From the NCBI GenBank assembly GCA_036497895.1, contig DASXIR010000088.1:1-53972 (forward strand): 53,972 bases of DNA, given 5' to 3'. The DNA is from Vicinamibacterales bacterium. GTDB taxonomy: Bacteria > Acidobacteriota > Vicinamibacteria > Vicinamibacterales > CAVVIG01. The notes under the pieces are model-generated. The model was given only the letters and a program-made list of their open reading frames with translations, had not been told where the DNA came from and made no database searches. The position numbers were made by a program, and so were the translations under genes. How positions within the stretch are numbered: the stretch's first letter is position 1; every line of letters starts with the position of its first letter. This document shows positions 8,404 through 53,972 of the stretch, piece by piece.

Positions 8404-8480
8404 TGGTGGGCGCTAGAGGACTCGAACCTCTGACCTCGTGCGTGTGAAGCACGCGCTCTAACCAACTGAGCTAAGCGCCC
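8404..8480 (-). tRNA. tRNA-Val (anticodon CAC), CCA encoded
   Basis: The reverse complement is GGGCGCTTAGCTCAGTTGGTTAGAGCGCGTGCTTCACACGCACGAGGTCAGAGGTTCGAGTCCTCTAGCGCCCACCA. It folds as a cloverleaf with a 7-bp acceptor stem, anticodon loop TTCACAC and TTCGAGT T-loop. Confidence 0.9.
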
Positions 8481-23949: not shown

Positions 23950-24023
23950 TGGAGCGGGCTACGGGGATCGAACCCGTGTCCGAGGCTTGGGAAGCCTCTG
24001 TACTACCATTGTACTAAGCCCGC
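23950..24023 (-). tRNA. tRNA-Gly (anticodon CCC), CCA encoded
   Basis: The reverse complement is GCGGGCTTAGTACAATGGTAGTACAGAGGCTTCCCAAGCCTCGGACACGGGTTCGATCCCCGTAGCCCGCTCCA. It folds as a cloverleaf with anticodon loop TTCCCAA. Confidence 0.9.
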
Positions 24024-44384: not shown

Positions 44385-46613
44385 CTAGCGTCGTGACGAG
44401 GGTGCGCTGACCTGCGCAGTCGCGACGTTGTTCATCGAATCGCTCGCCCTCAGGGTGAGGCCGCGCTCGCCGATCTCGCCGTCGATCGCCAGCTCGTAGT
44501 GCTCCTGCCGCGAATCGGCGATCCCGTCCACCGGAAACACCCCGCGCCAGCGTTGTCCGTCCTGCGAGAATTCCACGCGCTGGATGGGGGAGTGATCATC
44601 GCGGACGTCGAAGGTCACCAGCGTCTGCCCGCGCTCGACGCGGACCGCGCCCACGCTGATGGTCGGTGGCGTGTTGTCGATGTCGAATGCGACGCTGTCC
44701 ATCTCGCCGGTCAGCGCAAGGCCAGCCGGGTTGGACGGTGCGTCAGACGCAATCACCCGTACGAAGTAGGTGCCGTTCGGCACCGTCGTCGTGTCCCACA
44801 CCAGGATCGTGTCGGGCGTCGCCTTGCGCAGCGTCTTCCAGCTCGTCTCGCCTTCGCGGCGGTACAGGACGTCGTAGACCAGGTCGTCATCGTTCTCGTC
44901 ATCGGCTTTCCAGATGAGGGTCTCGAGTCCCTTCTGGTAGGCGCGCCGCCCGAGGCCGGTCGATACGCCCGGAGTCTGGCTGGCGGAGGCCGCGAGTTTC
45001 CGCTCCGGTGTTGACTGATCTTCGAACCCTGCGAGCTCCGGGTCGCCGGTCGAGAATGGCTTCTGGAAGACGATGCCGGGAGGATGCACGGTGATGGAGC
45101 GTACTTGCGGCCGCAGGTTGCGCTGCAGGTATGCGGCGCTCACCGAGGTAATCACCGGGCTCTCGCCTTTGCCGCTCATCACCACCCGCCATTGGAGGTA
45201 GCGGGCCTTGGGGCTGGTGATGGCCGAAGCATCAGCGTTGGCGTAGGCCGACGACCACGGGCTCCAGGTGTCGTCTGGCGTTTCGGTGTTGCCCGCGCGC
45301 GTGGAGACCTCGACCTTGCCACCCGTCGGAGTCGTACCATGCCAGTTGATGGCGCCCCAGGCCGCGACCATTTGCGCGTCGCGTGCTTCGGACTCGTATG
45401 TTCCGCGCGGTGCGCGCTCGGACGAGAGACGGAAGACTTTGCCCGGATTCGCGGTCGCGTAATACACGCGGCCGCCACGATCGCGGTAGATCGCGGTGAC
45501 CTGTTGCGCGCTCGCCCGTGAAAGCAGCGTGGGCCGCAGCGGTTCGCCTTCGAGGCGGTAAAGCTTGCCCTTGTTGCCGGTTCCGACGATCAGCGCGTTC
45601 TGATCGAACGCGATGTCGTAAGGCGTGTCGTCGCGCGATTCCCAGACCTCGTCCCAGACGCCGTCGCTCGAGATGCGGTAGATCGCACCTTTTGGTTGGC
45701 GGTGATCGTCCCTCGCTGCGCTGGCCGAACTGCCGCCGACATCCACAATCGACATCGAGGTGATTTCAGCTGAGACCGTCGCCACCGGCACCCGTACCGT
45801 CTCAGCGGCCGGCTGATCGATCTGCGTGACGCTGGCGCCCCCGCCCGACCCGGTCCGTCCGGCGATCGCCGTGGCGTAGAGCGTGCCCTTGTCGTCGAAG
45901 CGCAGCGCGTGAATTTCCTGGAACGGCGAATCGAGCAGCACGAACGCCTTGCCGGCGGGATCGATGCGGAGCACCCGGCCCGGTGTGCCGGTGCCGACCA
46001 GGAGATTGCCGGCCTTGTCGAACGCGAGCGCCGAGGCATGCGTCGCGTTGGTCTTGTAGAACGTGGCGCCTTTGCCATCCGGCGCAATCTTGTAGATCAC
46101 GCCCTTCTCGCCGGTGGCCGCGAACAGATTGCCGTTGGCGTCGGTCGCCAGTGCCCAGATGTACTTTTCGTCCGGACTGAAGAAGGTGGTCGCCGTGCCG
46201 TTGCGATCGACCTTGTAGATGCGGCCGTCCGGCGACGTGCCGACGTAAAGACCGCCGTTCGGCGCAGGCGCCAGGGCGTGCGCCTCCAGTTCCGAGCTGT
46301 CGAAGAACAGCGAGCCCTTGCCCTGTGGGTCGATGCGGAAGACCTTGCCTTCGTTGCCGGTGCCCACGAACAGCGTGCCGTCGGGCTGGGCCACCATCGA
46401 CCAGAGAAACGGCGCCGACGTTTCATAGACGAGCTCGGTCGCCGGCCCCAGCGTGAGCCGCCCCTGACTGTCCACGGAGAGGTTGTCGATGTCGCCCTTG
46501 AGAAAGTCGGCCTGGGTCGCCGTCTGAAAGAACCTGGGCGATGACGCTTCGAGCAGGAGGGGCGTCGTCGCGAGTAGCGCTGCCGCCAGTAAGCGGAGCC
46601 TTGAATTCAACAT
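44385..46613 (-). CDS. secreted beta-propeller protein with C-terminal Ig-like region (hypothetical)
   Basis: 742 aa. The signal peptide is MLNSRLRLLAAALLATTPLLLEA. About 40-aa blade repeats recur (DGTLFVGTGNEGKVFRID, NGGLYVGTSPDGRIYKVD, NGNLFAATGEKGVIYKIA, AGNLLVGTGTPGRVLRID...). It lies 28 nt downstream of the S55 peptidase gene. Confidence 0.7.
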   Translation of the reverse strand: MLNSRLRLLAAALLATTPLLLEASSPRFFQTATQADFLKGDIDNLSVDSQGRLTLGPATELVYETSAPFLWSMVAQPDGTLFVGTGNEGKVFRIDPQGKGSLFFDSSELEAHALAPAPNGGLYVGTSPDGRIYKVDRNGTATTFFSPDEKYIWALATDANGNLFAATGEKGVIYKIAPDGKGATFYKTNATHASALAFDKAGNLLVGTGTPGRVLRIDPAGKAFVLLDSPFQEIHALRFDDKGTLYATAIAGRTGSGGGASVTQIDQPAAETVRVPVATVSAEITSMSIVDVGGSSASAARDDHRQPKGAIYRISSDGVWDEVWESRDDTPYDIAFDQNALIVGTGNKGKLYRLEGEPLRPTLLSRASAQQVTAIYRDRGGRVYYATANPGKVFRLSSERAPRGTYESEARDAQMVAAWGAINWHGTTPTGGKVEVSTRAGNTETPDDTWSPWSSAYANADASAITSPKARYLQWRVVMSGKGESPVITSVSAAYLQRNLRPQVRSITVHPPGIVFQKPFSTGDPELAGFEDQSTPERKLAASASQTPGVSTGLGRRAYQKGLETLIWKADDENDDDLVYDVLYRREGETSWKTLRKATPDTILVWDTTTVPNGTYFVRVIASDAPSNPAGLALTGEMDSVAFDIDNTPPTISVGAVRVERGQTLVTFDVRDDHSPIQRVEFSQDGQRWRGVFPVDGIADSRQEHYELAIDGEIGERGLTLRASDSMNNVATAQVSAPSSRR

Positions 46614-46641
46614 ATCGATGACAGTGGGAAAGACGCGGGCG

Positions 46642-48507
46642 TCAGTTCTGCGACACCGTCAGCGTCAGGGTGCGCGAACCGGAAACAGCGTGCTCGGTGG
46701 GAAGTTCCCATTCACCGATCGTGGCGCTGTGAATCGGATTGAAACTGCCGCCACTACGGTCGCCTTCGAGCACGCCCAGCACCGAGGGCGGCAGCGACGA
46801 CAGCAGCTCGCCGTTGACGACGGCCCCGGCTTCCGAACTGAGCAGCCGCACGTAGAGCGTGTTGTTGCGGCGGCCCTTGTTGAGCGACTTGATCATCTGG
46901 TCGACGGTGCGTGCCTGGGGCGTGCGCGCCTCGCGCTGCTCCGACAGACTGAGCCTCGCGCCGTCGGACACCTGGATTGACAACGACCCGCTGGCGTTGG
47001 ACGGAATCTCGATCGGCAGCGTGCGAACGATGTCCTCGCCGCGATAGGTGCGGAAGAGCACCTTCAACGGGATGGTGCGGCCGGCGCGCGGACGCGGATC
47101 GTCCAGCCAGACTCGCTCGAGCGTCGCCGTCATCGGCGTCTCGGTCGTGGCGATCGTAATGTTGATGCCGTCGACATCGACCTTTTCGTAGTCGTTGCCC
47201 ATCAGGTAGGTCACCGGCGCGACCACGTAGGCGGCGGCATTCATCGAGCCTTGATCGCCCGAGAACAGGTTGTTGAAGGCAATTGGATCGTGCTTCGCGA
47301 CTCTCGCGCTGCCTCGCACCATGAAACTGGCGGCGCCGAACTGCCGCTCGTAGGATCCGATCGTATTCAGGATGCTCGCGTAGGTCATCAGCGGTCCGAA
47401 CAGCTGATCGTTAACGACGTCAAAATGGAACGTATGCGACGGGGCGCGCGGCGACTCGAGCGCAATCGTCAGCGGAATGGTGCGAGGCCCGGCGCCCAGC
47501 CGGCCGGCAATCGCGGTGGCGCGGTCCTGGGTGAAGGTGCCGATAATGTCGCCCGTGCTCGACAGCTTCATCGACGAGAACAGGCTCGGCAGAATCGTGT
47601 AAACGTATGCCCGGGTCATCGGAAATTCGGTCGGCCCCAGGTTGTACATCGGGTGGCCGAACGCGTAGACCCGGTCGCCGTCGATGTGCGTCACCGTGCC
47701 GGTACCGCCAAACTGCAGGTCGCCACCAACCAGCATGACGCCGATCGCGTCCCCCGGCTTGAGCGGACCGTCGAACGGCTTCTCGCCCTTGCGGAAGCCG
47801 CCAGCGCCGCTTCCGGAGGGAACGAAGCCCTGATCCTGGAACGCTCCGCCGAACACGTCTGCGACCTCCGGCTCGAAGCCGGACATGACGAGCGGCGTCG
47901 CGATCGGGCGAAGCAGCGTGCTCAGCTGGCTGCCAGCGAGACCCGCGACGCTGGTGATGCCGTCCATGCGGACATCATCGGGGCGATCGGCAAAAGGACG
48001 ATTCCAGTTCAGGGCCTTGCGAAACGCAGTGGTGAGTGCCTCGCGGGTGAGCGGATACTCGATGTGGACGCGTGCGCCTGGCGCCCGCACATCCGTCAGC
48101 ATGGTCGAGTCGGTCATCTCGGCGATCGGCGTAATGCCGGCGATCGGCTCTTTCGAGAAGCTGCCGAGCGCGTAAGACACCGCGCCAATCAGCTTGCCGT
48201 CGATGTAGACGGGACTTCCGCTCATGCCGGCGATCACGCCGGTGTTGGCGAGCGGTCCACCTTCGAGCTTGGCGAGAATGAGGTTGCGGTGCGTGCCGAT
48301 CACGTTCTCGAGCACGCCGATGATGTTGGCTTTGAATTCCTCGACGTGTGTCCCGTCGAAGACCGTTCGGCCGATGCCGACCATGCCCGGCCGAATCTGA
48401 TCGATGTTCATCTGCGAGGTCGCGCCGGTCAGCGTCGCGCCGGACAGAAGCGCCGACACCCCGATCACCACCGCTGTAAGCGTGACTGCGAGCCGACGGA
48501 CTAGCAT
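46642..48507 (-). CDS. SpoIVB-like peptidase S55 family protein with signal peptide
   Basis: The ATG at 48507 (MLVRRLAVTLTAVVIGVSALLS) lies within ORF 46642..48798. The S55 core is IGVLENVIGTHRNLILAKLEGGPLANTGVIAGMSGSPVYIDGKLIGAVSYA. Confidence 0.75.
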   Translation of the reverse strand: MLVRRLAVTLTAVVIGVSALLSGATLTGATSQMNIDQIRPGMVGIGRTVFDGTHVEEFKANIIGVLENVIGTHRNLILAKLEGGPLANTGVIAGMSGSPVYIDGKLIGAVSYALGSFSKEPIAGITPIAEMTDSTMLTDVRAPGARVHIEYPLTREALTTAFRKALNWNRPFADRPDDVRMDGITSVAGLAGSQLSTLLRPIATPLVMSGFEPEVADVFGGAFQDQGFVPSGSGAGGFRKGEKPFDGPLKPGDAIGVMLVGGDLQFGGTGTVTHIDGDRVYAFGHPMYNLGPTEFPMTRAYVYTILPSLFSSMKLSSTGDIIGTFTQDRATAIAGRLGAGPRTIPLTIALESPRAPSHTFHFDVVNDQLFGPLMTYASILNTIGSYERQFGAASFMVRGSARVAKHDPIAFNNLFSGDQGSMNAAAYVVAPVTYLMGNDYEKVDVDGINITIATTETPMTATLERVWLDDPRPRAGRTIPLKVLFRTYRGEDIVRTLPIEIPSNASGSLSIQVSDGARLSLSEQREARTPQARTVDQMIKSLNKGRRNNTLYVRLLSSEAGAVVNGELLSSLPPSVLGVLEGDRSGGSFNPIHSATIGEWELPTEHAVSGSRTLTLTVSQN

Positions 48508-48519
48508 GGATTTAATTCC

Positions 48520-48548
48520 GTTATACGGGAGAAGTGCTTGCTGGTCAA
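48520..48548 (-). promoter_or_regulatory. putative sigma-70 promoter for the S55 peptidase gene (TTGACC-N17-TATAAC)
   Basis: On the minus strand the sequence reads TTGACC agcaagcacttctcccg TATAAC ggaattaaatc ATG. The -10 element ends 11 nt before the start codon. Confidence 0.35.
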
Positions 48549-48567
48549 GGAGAAATGGCCGATCGTG

Positions 48568-48597
48568 TTGACAGCAATCACTACGGTTTGCTATCGT
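48568..48597 (+). promoter_or_regulatory. putative sigma-70 promoter for the aro-trp leader (TTGACA-N18-TATCGT)
   Basis: Read directly: TTGACA (48568-48573), an 18-nt spacer, then TATCGT (48592-48597). The leader ATG is 12 nt downstream. Confidence 0.4.
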
Positions 48598-48609
48598 CTG
48601 ACCCATCTG

Positions 48610-48720
48610 ATGCCGCAGTCGTTCACCCTCACATTCGTCGCCCGCCAGACCGCGCCCGTGTGCGCATCGGCGGGTTGGTGGTATTGGGGCACGACTGAAG
48701 AGGCATCCGCCTTGGCCTGA
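48610..48720 (+). CDS. putative aro/trp operon leader peptide (36 aa, contains Trp-Trp-Tyr-Trp)
   Basis: The peptide is MPQSFTLTFVARQTAPVCASAGWWYWGTTEEASALA. The codons TGG TGG TAT TGG lie at 48676-48687. The stop at 48718-48720 is 14 nt past the 5' arm of the antiterminator. It is the internal ATG of ORF 48538..48720. Confidence 0.5.
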   Translation: MPQSFTLTFVARQTAPVCASAGWWYWGTTEEASALA

Positions 48721-48756
48721 ACTGCCACTGCGCGAACGATTTTCGAGCCTCTTCAG
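48695..48756 (+). promoter_or_regulatory. antiterminator helix of the aro-trp attenuator
   Basis: CTGAAGAGGC (48695-48704) is perfectly complementary to GCCTCTTCAG (48747-48756). This pairing excludes the terminator helix. Confidence 0.55.
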
Positions 48757-48781
48757 CCAACCGGTTGAAGAGGCTTTTTTT
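48746..48781 (+). terminator. intrinsic terminator (attenuator) upstream of aroD/E-trpEGDC
   Basis: AGCCTCTTCA (48746-48755) pairs with TGAAGAGGCT (48766-48775) in a 10-bp perfect stem. The loop is gccaaccggt, with extra CC/GG pairs possible. A run of T follows (48775-48781). Confidence 0.65.
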
Positions 48782-48785
48782 ATTT

Positions 48786-50258
48786 GTGTCCAAACCACTG
48801 GTCTGCGTAACGGTCACCGGCGCCACGACGATGGAACTGCGCCAGAAGCGCGATGCCATCGCCGATGCCGATCTCGTCGAATTACGGCTCGATTCGGTCC
48901 GCGATCCTAACGTCGCCGGCGCCCTCGAGGGCCGGCGGCTGCCGGTGATCGTGACCTGCCGGCCGGCCTGGGAAGGCGGCGGCTTCACAGGATCGGAAGA
49001 GGACCGTCGGCGAATCCTCAGTGATGCGCTGGAACTCGGCGCCGACTACGTCGACATCGAGTGGCGCGCGCGCTTCGACGATCTGATCGAGCGATCAGGA
49101 GGGCGCCGCATCGTGCTCTCGAGTCACGATTTCTACGGGGTGCCGGCCGATCTGCTGGCGCGCGTTCGCGCGATGCGCTCGACCGGCGCACAGATCGTCA
49201 AGATCGCCGTCACCTTGGAGAGCCTGCGCGACGCGCTGACCCTGCACGATCTGGGCGCGCAGGGCGGGACGCCGAGCGCACTGATTCTCATCGGCATGGG
49301 CGAGTACGGTCTCACGACCCGCATCCTCGCCGGCCGGTTCGGATCGATCTGGACCTACGCGGGCGGCATCGGGTCGGTGGGACAGCTGACGCCCCAGACA
49401 CTCTTGCGCGACTACCACTTCCGCAATATCACCGCTGCGACACAAATCTACGGCATCGTCGGTGGCACGGTCGGACATTCGGTGTCGCCGGCCATGCACA
49501 ACGCGGCATTTCGAGCCGCGAGGCTCGACGCGGTTTACGTCCCGTTTCCTGCCGTCAGCGCGGCCGACTTCGCGGCGTTCGGCCGGGCCATCGGCATCAA
49601 TGGCGCCAGCATCACGATTCCCCACAAGGTGTCGATGTTCGATCAGGTTGACGAAGTGGACGCGGTGGCGCGCCGCATCGGCGCGATCAACACCGTCAGC
49701 GTGAACAACGATCGCTGGGTCGGCGCCAACACCGACGCCAGCGGATTCCTGCGGCCACTCCAGGAGCGTCTGTCTCTGAAAAACATGCGGGTGTCGGTGC
49801 TGGGCGCCGGTGGCGCGGCGAGGGCGGTGCTGGTGGCGCTGGCCTCGAGCGGCTGCTCGGTTCGCGTCCACGCCCGCGATCGCTTCCAGGCGCAAGACAT
49901 CGCGGTCCTGACGCCGGTGACGATTGGGCCGTGGCCGCCCGATCGCGGCAGCTGGGACCTGCTGATCAACTGCACGCCGATCGGCATGTACCCCCGCGTT
50001 GACGCGACGCCGATTCCCCGCGAACACCTGACGGGAAAGTACGTCTACGACCTGGTCTACAACCCTCCGGTCACGCGGCTCCTGCGCGAGGCCGAAGAGA
50101 TGGGCTGCCAGACGATCGGCGGCCTCGAGATGCTCGTCGCCCAGGCTGACGAACAGTTCCAGTGGTGGACCGGCACCAAGCCACCGATCGGTGTCATGAG
50201 AAATGCCGCGCTTCAGCGGCTGGCGGAGTTTACAGGCGATGAAAATCACCTCGTTTGA
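48786..50258 (+). CDS. bifunctional 3-dehydroquinate dehydratase (type I) / shikimate 5-dehydrogenase fusion (AroD-AroE)
   Basis: The N-terminal half is a type I DHQase (VCVTVTG, VELRLD, SSHDF, IVKIAV Schiff-base Lys region). The C-terminal half is AroE (YGIVGGTVGHSVSPAMHN, SITIPHK, NTD, GAGGAARAV). The GTG at 48786 is chosen because the TTG at 48765 lies inside the terminator stem. Confidence 0.85.
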   Translation: MSKPLVCVTVTGATTMELRQKRDAIADADLVELRLDSVRDPNVAGALEGRRLPVIVTCRPAWEGGGFTGSEEDRRRILSDALELGADYVDIEWRARFDDLIERSGGRRIVLSSHDFYGVPADLLARVRAMRSTGAQIVKIAVTLESLRDALTLHDLGAQGGTPSALILIGMGEYGLTTRILAGRFGSIWTYAGGIGSVGQLTPQTLLRDYHFRNITAATQIYGIVGGTVGHSVSPAMHNAAFRAARLDAVYVPFPAVSAADFAAFGRAIGINGASITIPHKVSMFDQVDEVDAVARRIGAINTVSVNNDRWVGANTDASGFLRPLQERLSLKNMRVSVLGAGGAARAVLVALASSGCSVRVHARDRFQAQDIAVLTPVTIGPWPPDRGSWDLLINCTPIGMYPRVDATPIPREHLTGKYVYDLVYNPPVTRLLREAEEMGCQTIGGLEMLVAQADEQFQWWTGTKPPIGVMRNAALQRLAEFTGDENHLV

Positions 50259-51711
50259 AGAATTCAAGGAACTGGCGCGGCGCGGCACCTTCGTGCCGGT
50301 GTGCAAGGAGATCGTGGCCGATCTGCTGACGCCGGTCTCGGCGTTCCTGAAAATCGCCGAGCACGCGGATTACGCGTTCCTGCTCGAAAGCGTCGAAGGC
50401 GGCGAACACGTCGGCCGGTATTCGTTTCTCGGCAAGGATCCGTTCCTCATCCTGCGCTCGCGCGACGGCAAGACCACGATCGATCGCGGCGGCAGCACGA
50501 CGGAGATCGAGAAACCGTTCGTCGACACCTTGCGGGGACTGATGGCCGACTTCCGGTCGCCATTTGTCCCGGGCCTGCCGCGTTTCACCGGTGGGGCAGT
50601 GGGCTATCTCGGTTACGGCGCGTCCTCGTGGTTCGAGCCGGTGTTGGGCGATCTGGGCTCGGCCCCAGACAACGCGGATACCGCCGGCTTCATGCTGTTC
50701 GACACGGTGCTGGCGTTCGACCATGTCCAGCATCGCATCCTCATCATCGCCAACGCGCGGATCACGGCCGACGACGACCTTGAATCGCTGTACCAGTTTG
50801 CCTGCGCCAAGATTCAGTTCCTGGAACGGGAGCTGGAACGGAACCTGTCGCACAGCCGCCGCGACGCCGCCGCCCCGCTGGCGTTCACCTCGAACCACAC
50901 CCAGGAGCGGTTCGAAGAGCAGGTACGTGCCGCCAAAGAACACATCGCCGCCGGCGACATTTATCAGGTGGTGTTGTCGCAGCGTTTCGAGGCCGAGGTC
51001 GCAGCCGATCCGTTCACGGTGTATCGCGCGCTGCGTCACGTGAATCCGTCGCCGTACATGTATTTCATCCGCATGGGCGGCGTGTCGGTCGTCGGTTCCT
51101 CTCCCGAGATGCTGGTACGGGTCGAAGGCTCGCGGGTCGAGACCCACCCGATTGCCGGCACCAGACGCCGGGGACGAACCGACGAAGAGGACATGCGGCT
51201 GGCCGAGGAGTTGAAGCGGAACGAGAAAGAGCGAGCCGAGCACGTGATGCTGGTCGACCTGGGACGCAACGACGTCGGGCGGGTCTGTGCGTACGGCTCG
51301 GTGCGGGTGCCGCAGTTCATGGGGCTCGAGCGTTTTTCTCACGTCATGCACCTCACCTCGATAGTCGAAGGCAAGCTGGCCGACGATCGCGATCGGCTCG
51401 ATGCGCTGGTGTCGTGCTTTCCGGCCGGCACCGTTTCCGGCGCGCCCAAGGTCAGGGCGATGCAAATCATCCGCGACCTCGAGCCGTCGGGTCGCGGTCT
51501 GTATGCGGGAGCGGTCGGCTACCTCGATTTCGCCGGCAACCTCGACTTCTGCATCGCCATCCGGACCGTGATCATGTCGAAGGGCATGGCCTACGTGCAG
51601 GCGGGCGCCGGCATCGTCATGGATTCGAACCCGGCAGCGGAGTTCGAAGAAACGCGGGACAAGGCGACGGCGCTGCTGCGAGCGCTCGATCTCGCGCAGG
51701 CCGGTCTGTGA
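50239..51711 (+). CDS. trpE: anthranilate synthase component I
   Basis: The ATG at 50239 begins MKITSFEEFKELA. It has the LLESVEGG Trp-feedback motif region and the chorismate-binding domain (GAVGYLDFAGNLDFCIAIRT, QAGAGIV). Confidence 0.95.
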   Translation: MKITSFEEFKELARRGTFVPVCKEIVADLLTPVSAFLKIAEHADYAFLLESVEGGEHVGRYSFLGKDPFLILRSRDGKTTIDRGGSTTEIEKPFVDTLRGLMADFRSPFVPGLPRFTGGAVGYLGYGASSWFEPVLGDLGSAPDNADTAGFMLFDTVLAFDHVQHRILIIANARITADDDLESLYQFACAKIQFLERELERNLSHSRRDAAAPLAFTSNHTQERFEEQVRAAKEHIAAGDIYQVVLSQRFEAEVAADPFTVYRALRHVNPSPYMYFIRMGGVSVVGSSPEMLVRVEGSRVETHPIAGTRRRGRTDEEDMRLAEELKRNEKERAEHVMLVDLGRNDVGRVCAYGSVRVPQFMGLERFSHVMHLTSIVEGKLADDRDRLDALVSCFPAGTVSGAPKVRAMQIIRDLEPSGRGLYAGAVGYLDFAGNLDFCIAIRTVIMSKGMAYVQAGAGIVMDSNPAAEFEETRDKATALLRALDLAQAGL

Positions 51712-51718
51712 AGTCTCC

Positions 51719-52291
<573 letters not shown>

Positions 52292-52293
52292 GC

Positions 52294-53331
52294 ATGTTTC
52301 AAGAGCTTCTCGAAAAGCTGACGCGTCACGAAGACCTGACCAGCGGCGAGGCCGCGGCCGCGATGTCGGAGATCATGGAAGGCCGCGCCGCGCCGGCGCA
52401 CCTGTCGGCGCTGCTGGTCGGTCTGGCAATGAAAGGCGAGCGGCCGCTCGAGATCGTCGGGCTTGCGCAGACCATGCGGGCGCACGCGGTTCGCGTGTCG
52501 AAACGCTACGACGACCTGCTCGATACCTGCGGCACCGGTGGCGACCGCTCAGGAACGCTCAACATCTCCTCGTGCGCGGCGCTGGTGGTTGCGGCCTGCG
52601 GTGTGCGGGTCGCCAAACACGGCAATCGATCGGCGTCGAGCCGGACCGGCGGCGCGGACGTCTACGAAGCGCTGGGCGTTCGCATCACCGCCGCGCCCGG
52701 CGTGGTCGAACGATGCCTGGCCGAAGCGGGAATCGGCTTTTTCTTCGCGCCGACGTTTCATCCGTCAATGCGTCATGCCGGGCCGGTACGCCGCGAACTC
52801 GGAATCCGCACCGCTTTCAACCTGCTCGGACCGTTGACGAATCCAGCGGGGGCCACGCGCCAACTGGTCGGGGTGTCGCGACCGGAATATACCGAGCTGA
52901 TGGCGCGCGCGCTGATGCTGCTGGGCACGACCCGCGCGTGGGTGGTCCATGGCGCCGACGGCATCGACGAGCTGACCACCACCGGATACACAAAGATCTC
53001 CGAGTGCCGCGACGGCGTGGTCAACACCTTTTACCTGCATCCCGCCGATGTCGGCCTGGTGAAGGCGCATGCCGGCTCGCTTCAGGGCGGCGACGCGCAC
53101 GAGAACGCCCGGATCATCGAGCGCATTCTGGCAGGCGAGCGTGGCGCGCCGCGGGACGTGGTGCTGCTCAACGCCGGAGCGGCGCTGTTCATCGCCGGGG
53201 CGGCCGCGTCGGTCAGCGACGGAATCGTGAAGGCGTCCCGGGCGATCGATCGCGGCGACGCGAAGCGGACACTGGCGAAGCTCGTTTCGATTTCGACGGC
53301 CGAAGAGTTTACGGCGGGAGCGGCGCAGTGA
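52294..53331 (+). CDS. trpD: anthranilate phosphoribosyltransferase
   Basis: The ATG at 52294 lies within the frame of ORF 51952..53331. It has the blocks DTCGTGGD, KHGNRS and NLLGPLTNPA. Confidence 0.95.
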   Translation: MFQELLEKLTRHEDLTSGEAAAAMSEIMEGRAAPAHLSALLVGLAMKGERPLEIVGLAQTMRAHAVRVSKRYDDLLDTCGTGGDRSGTLNISSCAALVVAACGVRVAKHGNRSASSRTGGADVYEALGVRITAAPGVVERCLAEAGIGFFFAPTFHPSMRHAGPVRRELGIRTAFNLLGPLTNPAGATRQLVGVSRPEYTELMARALMLLGTTRAWVVHGADGIDELTTTGYTKISECRDGVVNTFYLHPADVGLVKAHAGSLQGGDAHENARIIERILAGERGAPRDVVLLNAGAALFIAGAAASVSDGIVKASRAIDRGDAKRTLAKLVSISTAEEFTAGAAQ

Positions 53332-53972
53332 CGAGCCGGCGCGCGGCCGCTGCCAGCGAAACGCCTGATCCGGAAGCAAGGCCGGCCGACCTGCTTGCGA
53401 CCATCGTCGCCGCGACCAGGCGGATCGTTGAAGTACGCCAGGCGGAGCAGTCGTTGGCAGTTCTGGAGGCGCGGGCCGCGGCGATGCCGTCCCGCGCCGG
53501 CCGTTTTGTCAGCGCGTTGTCGCGGGCCGATCGCGTCAATGTCATCGCGGAATGCAAACGGCGATCGCCGTCGAAAGGCGTGCTCAGGCAGGACTACGAT
53601 CCGGTGGCGATTGCGACCGGTTATGCGGCGGCCGGTGCGGCAGCGATCTCGGTGCTGACCGAGCCGGCGTTCTTCGACGGTGCTCTCGAGCATCTGGCGG
53701 CGGTCCGCGCCGCGGTCGAGACACCGCTGCTTCGCAAGGACTTCATCGTGTCGGAGTACCAACTGTGCGAGGCAAAGGTGGCAGGCGCTGACGCCGCGCT
53801 GCTGATCGTGGCGGCTCTGCCGCTGGAGGCACTGACGCGTCTGCACCGATTCGCCAGCGCGATCGGCCTCGACGTGCTGGTCGAAGTGCACGACGCCGGA
53901 GAACTGGCGCTCGCGCTTCAGATCGGTGCGCGCGTCGTGGGCGTCAACAACCGGAACCTGAAAACCCTCAGC
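53328..53972 (+). CDS. trpC: indole-3-glycerol phosphate synthase (5' part; runs off the window)
   Basis: The GTG at 53328 overlaps the trpD stop as GTGA. My manual translation gives ...VIAECKRRSPSKGVL...ISVLTEPAFFDG...LLRKDFIVSEYQ...GADAALLIVAAL. The frame stays open to the window end. It is not in the ORF track because no stop is present. Confidence 0.9.
   Translation, partial: MTSRRAAAASETPDPEARPADLLATIVAATRRIVEVRQAEQSLAVLEARAAAMPSRAGRFVSALSRADRVNVIAECKRRSPSKGVLRQDYDPVAIATGYAAAGAAAISVLTEPAFFDGALEHLAAVRAAVETPLLRKDFIVSEYQLCEAKVAGADAALLIVAALPLEALTRLHRFASAIGLDVLVEVHDAGELALALQIGARVVGVNNRNLKTLS

Follow-up and report, generated by a model that had tools for sequence, protein, structure and literature searches.

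A conserved leader ORF and terminator upstream of the aroDE-trp operon of Vicinamibacterales form a putative ribosome-mediated transcription attenuator with Trp and Tyr codons

The aromatic amino acid genes near the right end of positions 1-53,972 of contig DASXIR010000088.1 from a Vicinamibacterales bacterium (assembly GCA_036497895.1; this whole stretch of 53,972 nucleotides (nt) is called the window here) raise the question of whether their transcription is governed by a leader peptide, as is that of the trp operon in Escherichia coli. A first-pass annotation made from the sequence alone had proposed such an attenuator at 48568-48781, immediately upstream of a fused aroD-aroE gene (aroDE) and trpEGDC. 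The attenuation logic that it invoked is supported in silico, in that the promoter, the leader reading frame, the Trp run and both of the mutually exclusive helices are conserved, and the element is very probably a ribosome-mediated transcription attenuator of the trpL kind. The suggestion that the organism is not a proteobacterium was also right; it belongs to the Acidobacteriota, order Vicinamibacterales, and the closest AroDE proteins are named Acidobacteria and Vicinamibacterales.

The comparison uses 107 related loci that have both a leader open reading frame (ORF) and a terminator. They came from a scan of one genome per species (mostly Vicinamibacterales metagenome-assembled genomes, MAGs) and from a metagenome scan that added about 50 examples; 104 distinct leaders were aligned (an earlier alignment held 57 sequences), and individual loci are cited by number. 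Almost all Vicinamibacterales loci whose upstream DNA is long enough have a short ORF with a Trp run, and then a T run, just before aroDE, and the layout is shared: a promoter, an ORF that starts about 12 nt past the -10 hexamer, a Trp run, the segment called A below, and a terminator hairpin (B:C) directly upstream of aroDE.

In the window this leader region is the 278-nt spacer between aroDE and a divergent peptidase-S55-like gene (46642-48507, minus strand). Its promoter (48568-48597, plus strand) has a -35 hexamer TTGACA (48568-48573), an 18-nt spacer and a -10 hexamer TATCGT (48592-48597); a TG at 48589-48590 precedes the latter and makes an extended -10 element, TGcTATCGT (48589-48597). 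It is the sole sigma-70-like match that a promoter scan found in the 44-54 kb part of the window. Among the 98 related loci with a scored promoter, the -35 hexamer is TTGACA in 71, the spacer is 18 nt in 74 and TG precedes the -10 hexamer in 78. The leader ORF (48610-48720, plus strand) has 36 codons and a stop, with its ATG at 48610, 12 nt past the -10 hexamer, and its TGA at 48718-48720, and encodes MPQSFTLTFVARQTAPVCASAGWWYWGTTEEASALA. In the relatives the median distance between the -10 hexamer and the farthest-upstream in-frame start is 12 nt (interquartile range 10-15, with clustering at 9-16 nt). As start codon, 62 loci have ATG, 24 have GTG and 12 have TTG, and the median peptide length is 36 amino acids. 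The first-pass annotation had named loss of the peptide frame in relatives as an observation that would speak against an attenuator; between the promoter and the Trp run, no stop codon interrupts the frame of the Trp codons in 92 of the 98 loci, as compared with 68 and 36 for the other two frames.

No Shine-Dalgarno sequence precedes the window's leader ORF. Because the space between the -10 hexamer and the start codon is too short to hold one, the leader mRNA is probably leaderless or nearly so, with a predicted transcription start site very close to the ATG. The near-leaderless character that had been ascribed to this ORF thus holds in the window and in its relatives. The aroDE gene begins with a GTG 5 nt after the U-tract (48781-48788) and likewise lacks a Shine-Dalgarno sequence, as do trpG (51694-51721) and trpD (52269-52296), so initiation independent of such sequences may be common in this genome.

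Codons 23-26 of the leader are TGG TGG TAT TGG (Trp-Trp-Tyr-Trp; 48676-48687). Two to four clustered Trp codons are present in 104 of the 107 leaders (three in 77 loci, two in 15, four in 12, and a single one in 3), and outside the cluster Trp makes up 1.0% of the leader peptide. The usual motifs are WWYW, WRWYW, WWWYW, YWWWY and WWWW, and the two apparent exceptions to the run are YQWRY in L025 and RRWRYAF in L042. The mixed Trp and Tyr codons that were pointed out in the window are typical: 96 of 107 leaders have Tyr within or beside the cluster, Tyr makes up 1.6% of residues elsewhere in the peptide, and Phe is present in 17 leaders. The Tyr codons of the leaders vary synonymously (TAT 96 times, TAC 42 times); TAT is the rarer of the two in the window's aroDE, trpE, trpG and trpD genes (8 TAT, 25 TAC).

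Three copies of one 10-nt element follow. A, CTGAAGAGGC (48695-48704, plus strand), lies inside the leader ORF, begins 7 nt after the last Trp codon and would be the 5' arm of the antiterminator. B, GCCTCTTCAG (48747-48756), lies within the 5' arm of the terminator (48745-48758, plus strand) and is common to antiterminator and terminator. C, TGAAGAGGCT (48766-48775, plus strand), is part of the terminator's 3' arm (48763-48776), which together with a run of seven T (48775-48781) makes up the plus-strand feature at 48763-48781 that was identified by a terminator scan. The first-pass annotation had all of these in place, namely the promoter, the 36-codon ORF with its TGG TGG TAT TGG, the three copies and the T run, and erred slightly in two measurements. 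A ends 13 nt, rather than 14 nt, ahead of the stop codon, and the B:C stem has 14 bp (48745-48758 with 48763-48776; 4-nt loop, -23.9 kcal/mol) rather than 10. The A:B helix has 10 bp, with a duplex energy of -20.3 kcal/mol. That A:B and B:C exclude one another is borne out by the shared arm B, by the predicted folds and by three-way covariation, the last two of which are described below. Within the 54-kb window the exact 10-mer is confined to A, B and C, and no extra copy turned up in the related loci, which span 10-21 kb; each of these loci has exactly one terminator site over that whole length. Since the 10-mer is unique to this place in the window and the same arrangement recurs before aroDE in 107 loci, the pattern is beyond chance.

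The alignment of orthologous upstream regions, which the first-pass annotation had proposed, shows both the conservation of the Trp and Tyr codons and compensatory changes in A, B and C. Over the 104 sequences A and B are paired in 90.9% of cells, as against 38-56% when the partner is slid, and cells with a double change number 23, a count that none of 500 shuffles attained (9.2 +/- 2.5 on average). B and C are paired in 96%, with 73 double-change cells against 20.7 +/- 5.0 in shuffles. The 57-sequence alignment gave similar values, A:B being paired in 92% of cells (40-56% when slid) and B:C in 93%. A site with at least 9 of 10 possible pairs to B is found in 80 of 104 loci, nearly always 16-32 nt after the first Trp codon, and the best site in shuffled sequence averages 7.5 pairs.

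The core of B is near-invariant (GCCTCTTCAG in 69 of 104 sequences), and the B positions at which A:B shows compensatory changes are also those that covary with C. Thus, where B reads GCCCCCUCA[A/G], A reads ..GAGGGGGC and C reads UUGAGGGGGC; where B is GCCUCUCCAG, A is CUGGAGAGGC and C is UUGGGGAGGC; and where B is GCCCCUUCAG, A is UUGGAGGGGC and C is UUGAAGGGGC. By locus, B GCCCCCTCA[A/G] is accompanied by A ..GAGGGGGC and C TTGAGGGGGC in L115 and L117, B GCCTCTCCAG by A CTGGAGAGGC and C TTGGGGAGGC in L114 (and similarly in L018), and B GCCCCTTCAG by A TTGGAGGGGC and C TTGAAGGGGC in L042. A and C vary mostly from A to G, which preserves a G.U pair with B and looks like a neutral first step of a three-way change. 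The stop codon lies inside A in L043, L045 and L124, where A is also in a different frame, and it lies inside A in L050 and L085 as well; because at least five loci keep A despite an internal stop or another frame, it is A as RNA, and not the peptide it encodes, that is selected. Apart from the Trp run and the part encoded by A, the peptide is not conserved.

These parts suggest the following course of events. Transcription would start a few bases upstream of the leader ATG, and a ribosome would translate the 36-codon leader behind the advancing RNA polymerase. If charged tRNA-Trp were scarce, the ribosome should stall at codons 23-26, and scarcity of charged tRNA-Tyr may act alike. A stalled ribosome would leave A exposed just ahead of it, free to pair with B once B has been made; with B so occupied the B:C terminator would not form, and the polymerase would continue into aroDE-trpEGDC and, in relatives, through trpFBA and the chorismate mutase, DAHP synthase and tyrA genes. 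When Trp is plentiful the ribosome should instead move across A as far as the stop codon during the synthesis of B and C, so that the 14-bp B:C hairpin with its U7 tract forms and transcription ends at about 48781, releasing a leader RNA about 175 nt long (its exact length being set by the transcription start site). We infer the transcription start site, the translation of the leader ORF, the stalling, the timing of the steps and the response in vivo from the parts, their conservation and the covariation of both helices, which are seen directly.

Folding agrees with much of this scheme. The first-pass annotation had suggested folding the leader for both alternatives. The minimum free energy (MFE) fold of RNA 48600-48760, in which C has not yet been made, pairs A with B, and the fold of RNA 48600-48790 (-81.5 kcal/mol, z = -4.2 relative to shuffles) contains the B:C terminator, and A has the 5' end of the ORF as its partner. 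When a ribosome was represented by a 28-nt mask and the RNA was ended before C, B paired with A if the ribosomal A site was at the first Trp, second Trp or Tyr codon of the run; at the third Trp codon, 3 nt of A are covered and B is not paired with A. In this model a ribosome stalled at any of the first three regulatory codons leaves A free. The gap between the last Trp codon and A is 7-22 nt across the loci.

Several observations weigh against the attenuator as just described, beyond the general one that its support is computational. As soon as C has been made, the terminator is favoured at equilibrium whatever the masked state, so equilibrium folding with ribosome masks fails to separate the two states, and the switch must be kinetic, as it is in classical attenuators. 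A ribosome at the window's stop codon covers only the last 2-5 nt of A, and simple masking would still permit A:B pairing; the first-pass statement that such a ribosome masks A is better read kinetically, with A inside the ribosome while B and C are made and the local B:C hairpin then forming first. Relative to A, the stop codon falls anywhere between 9 nt inside and 19 nt beyond (40 nt beyond in one case), the commonest gap being the 13 nt of the window, and complete coverage of A by a ribosome that has reached the stop is limited to lineages with a stop codon within or adjoining A. Furthermore, no conserved anti-antiterminator equivalent to the E. coli 1:2 helix was found among 57 loci. The candidate segment for one in the window is the 5' end of the leader ORF (48609-48622, plus strand); the MFE fold of the full leader joins it to the A region (48691-48706), and the duplex energy is -19.3 kcal/mol. 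Over 57 loci the mean z of this pairing is -0.54, and it outdoes shuffled sequence in no clade but the window's own; it was dropped as a conserved element and retained as a weak feature of that clade. Pairing of the UGGUGG codons with a CCAC after the stop, which would resemble the E. coli 1:2 helix, is not conserved either (mean z -0.22; CCAC in 25 of 57 spacers, with 30% expected). Finally, the core is so invariant that the support for A:B consists mostly of conservation and G.U-neutral changes rather than full compensatory switches.

Could the same parts serve another kind of control? The hairpin might act mainly on translation, B:C blocking initiation at aroDE and leader stalling freeing it, with termination secondary. 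There is a GAGG in the 3' arm of the hairpin, and 10 nt separate the end of that arm from the aroDE GTG; the U-tract in the window ends 5 nt before the start, with no other Shine-Dalgarno-like sequence there, the T run ends 5-15 nt from the start in several relatives, and short Cys ORFs of mycobacteria provide a precedent (bioRxiv 10.1101/834739). However, the leader stop is as little as 62 nt and as much as 206 nt away from the aroDE start, depending on the locus, and many terminators lie 30-150 nt upstream of that start, and the U-tract conserved after the stem is needless for a purely translational hairpin, so that this explanation seems unlikely.

A factor acting in trans (a TRAP-like protein, uncharged tRNA at a T-box, or a small ligand) might decide antitermination, the leader ORF being incidental. 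The 10-nt core could be its binding site, as it is near-invariant even across relatives whose AroDE proteins are only about 50% identical to that of the window. Against this, conservation extends to the ORF, its start position and its Trp run but not to the remainder of the peptide, which a factor alone would not explain, and the known signals for such factors are missing: no Rfam leader family reached the gathering threshold in the whole window, and none matched up to E 10 in 48400-48900, including Trp_leader (RF00513) and T-box (RF00230), the matches in the E-value scan being chance-level small RNAs driven by the terminator; a TRAP-type array, in which about 9-11 (G/U)AG triplets 2-3 nt apart overlap the antiterminator, is likewise absent from the leader, which has three isolated (G/U)AG triplets (all GAG; longest chain 1). 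The T-box model describes a specifier loop, a T-box sequence and a stem I; in their place the leader has an ORF, probably translated, with a conserved frame. Control by such a factor is accordingly very improbable. Equally hard to credit is the idea that the unit serves mainly as a gene for a small RNA or small protein that acts in trans like Sinorhizobium rnTrpL/peTrpL (PMC6614838, PMC7298713), with control of the operon a side effect or additional role. The unit does have its own strong promoter and terminator, and its invariant core is a possible seed, but it always lies directly upstream of aroDE on the same strand, no second operon promoter was detected, and the peptide is unconserved outside the Trp run and the part encoded by A. 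Ribosome-mediated transcription attenuation therefore remains the preferred reading.

Does the attenuator respond to Tyr as well as to Trp? Operons in relatives contain genes for the synthesis of both amino acids, which makes sense of a leader with codons for both. The idea that the leader's Tyr codon tracks the presence of tyrA in the operon was rejected; L123, whose leader has WWWW and whose operon has trpA as its last gene, fitted it, but the W-only leaders of L164, L165 and L166 precede operons with DAHP synthase and tyrA genes. In Corynebacterium glutamicum the aroR leader (Phe-Tyr-Phe) lies upstream of the aroF operon and Tyr supply is without effect on transcription (PMC11802643). Since the tracking test failed and the Tyr codon of aroR gives no response to Tyr, Tyr sensing by the Vicinamibacterales leader is plausible but unproven. 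A still broader proposal is that one leader reads the charging of two tRNAs and so sets the expression of almost the entire aromatic pathway, namely DAHP synthase, aroDE, chorismate mutase, tyrA and the seven trp genes, and that its released RNA of about 175 nt may in addition act in trans like rhizobial rnTrpL; this is conceivable, yet we consider it rather doubtful.

The operon itself (all plus strand) begins with the aroDE fusion (48786-50258; type I 3-dehydroquinase plus shikimate dehydrogenase, with Pfam DHquinase_I, Shikimate_dh_N and SDH_C domains), which has homologs of the same length, 490 amino acids. It is followed by trpE (anthranilate synthase component I; 50239-51711, identified by Pfam, start placed by tblastn against L082), trpG (glutamine amidotransferase, Pfam GATase; 51719-52291), trpD (anthranilate phosphoribosyltransferase, Pfam Glycos_transf_3; 52294-53331, start also placed) and trpC (indole-3-glycerol-phosphate synthase; 53328-53972), which is cut by the window end and has a tblastn match from 53385 in an open frame, its start probably being at a GTGA overlap with the trpD stop. 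That a common-pathway fusion gene would be controlled together with trp genes thus holds, as aroDE is a fusion by its Pfam domains and heads the trp operon. The aroD/E-trpEGDC operon named by the first-pass annotation is correct for the window, but in relatives the putatively controlled unit is a larger aromatic supraoperon: in ten relatives with contigs that extend past trpA it runs on after trpC, and seven of these have trpF, trpB, trpA and the chorismate mutase, DAHP synthase and tyrA genes. In L081, L082 and L083 (AroDE 90%, 75% and 71% identical to that of the window), three relatives on long contigs that were read from end to end, it is a tightly packed aroDE-trpE-G-D-C-F-B-A followed by genes for a CM_2 chorismate mutase, DAHP synthase and prephenate dehydrogenase (tyrA). 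The same eleven genes are present in the more distant L086, L096, L097, L105, L118 and L125. In L081 the sole promoter-like and the sole strong terminator-like site are both in the leader.

Some operons differ from this arrangement. L164, L165 and L166 have no CM_2 chorismate mutase gene; they keep those for DAHP synthase and tyrA, and CoA-transferase genes follow (L164-L166:18100-21400). The L167 operon has no called DAHP synthase gene, and after trpA the L123 operon gives way to genes for a CoA-transferase and a short-chain fatty-acid transporter (L123:17070-21386). The trpE gene is called as two ORFs in the long-read MAG contigs of L081 (11454-12927) and L164 (11476-12952); these are probably assembly frameshifts and not pseudogenes. 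Some intergenic spacers of these GC-rich operons contain A/T-rich short tandem repeats with units ATTTCAG, CTGAAATCCAAT and GCTGA[AG]A, for example between the DAHP synthase gene and tyrA in L081 (19587-19703) and between the leader terminator and aroDE in L014-L017 and L065. On the other side of the leader, the window's divergent neighbors (44385-48507, minus strand) encode a SpoIVB-like peptidase S55 and a beta-propeller protein (Reg_prop/Vgb_lyase); they are conserved throughout the order, for instance in L082, L083 and L164-L167, and most loci with these neighbors have a pair of genes for an extracytoplasmic function (ECF) sigma factor and a zf-HC2 anti-sigma factor further upstream. Two tRNA genes on the minus strand (8407-8480 and 23953-24023) are the sole Rfam matches above the gathering threshold in the window.

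How widely is the leader distributed? No such leader was found at the aroDE-fusion loci examined outside Vicinamibacterales, which are from Planctomycetota, Thermodesulfobacteriota, archaea and other Acidobacteria, the last including the aroDE-trpE loci L061, L062 and L077. A TGGTGGTGG stretch in L058 was considered and is probably a frame coincidence. Three MAG records, L010, L049 and L063, labelled Bifidobacterium breve, Bifidobacteriaceae and Acidimicrobiia, respectively, carry a Vicinamibacterales-type leader and operon, and their labels probably reflect mis-binning or mislabelling. L167, whose AroDE is 53% identical to that of L043, has a Trp-codon leader, MSDRLWWWGDTSIGVS, with no recognisable terminator hairpin or U-tract (L167:9740-10000) and may be a translational variant.

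The evidence supports the view that these leaders are a new, order-wide sequence family of a well-known mechanism, apparently undescribed in Vicinamibacterales. A 2010 survey noted that nearly all attenuators predicted in Acidobacteria lacked annotation (PMC2965389), and a literature search that combined Acidobacteria or Vicinamibacter with trp attenuation or leader peptides found no relevant paper. Because the mechanism is itself textbook material, what is gained is distribution and detail and not principle, and each of the features that were singled out at the start (the organism type; the mixed Trp and Tyr codons; the near-leaderless ORF; the joint control of aroDE and trp genes) has a precedent elsewhere. 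The family would extend classic ribosome-mediated attenuation to the Acidobacteriota, and it indicates that in an abundant soil order the entry steps of aromatic biosynthesis are placed, together with its Trp and Tyr branches, under one promoter and leader. Annotators gain a defined RNA motif and a small ORF, with about 100 aligned examples for an Rfam-type model, and the alignment is a natural data set on the co-evolution of three mutually pairing segments, in which A and C seem to drift from A to G by way of G.U pairs and B then changes from U to C.

E. coli trpL (RF00513) and the Vicinamibacterales leader both have a promoter-near ORF with tandem Trp codons and an intrinsic terminator before the first structural gene, both share one arm between antiterminator and terminator, and both stand before trpE and the genes that follow it. 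They nevertheless have no homology in sequence or structure, there being no Rfam match up to E 10. In Vicinamibacterales the Trp codons lie upstream of the antiterminator arm, outside any conserved segment 1, and no conserved 1:2 helix was found; the stop codon comes after A rather than before segment 2; the mRNA is probably leaderless or nearly so; and the operon adds aroDE and, in relatives, chorismate mutase, DAHP synthase and tyrA genes. Trp/aro supraoperons that include tyrA are known in Bacillus subtilis, Desulfovibrio vulgaris and Nostoc (PMC1173090). That of B. subtilis is controlled by TRAP, for which the present leader has no site, and the gene order here is distinct from that of the known supraoperons, with aroDE first, then trpEGDCFBA, chorismate mutase, DAHP synthase and tyrA, and with no pheA or hisC.

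Leaderless sensory short ORFs are known in mycobacteria (10.1101/834739), and the closest parallels in layout are actinobacterial. Streptomyces lividans trpL1, MFAHSTRNWWWTAHPAAH, is a leaderless WWW leader followed by a Rho-independent terminator upstream of trpE (PMC8079986), and C. glutamicum trpL is a leaderless leader with a WWW run and a terminator before trpE (PMC11802643). The Vicinamibacterales leaders share the probably leaderless mRNA, the Trp run and the terminator with them, but are from another phylum, are unrelated in sequence, encode a longer peptide (the median of 36 amino acids given above) with Tyr beside the Trp run, and precede a much larger operon. The aroR leader of C. 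glutamicum is similar in that mixed aromatic codons control a common-pathway gene, that for DAHP synthase; there the codons are Phe-Tyr-Phe and the trp genes have a separate leader, whereas in Vicinamibacterales one Trp/Tyr leader fronts both sets of genes.

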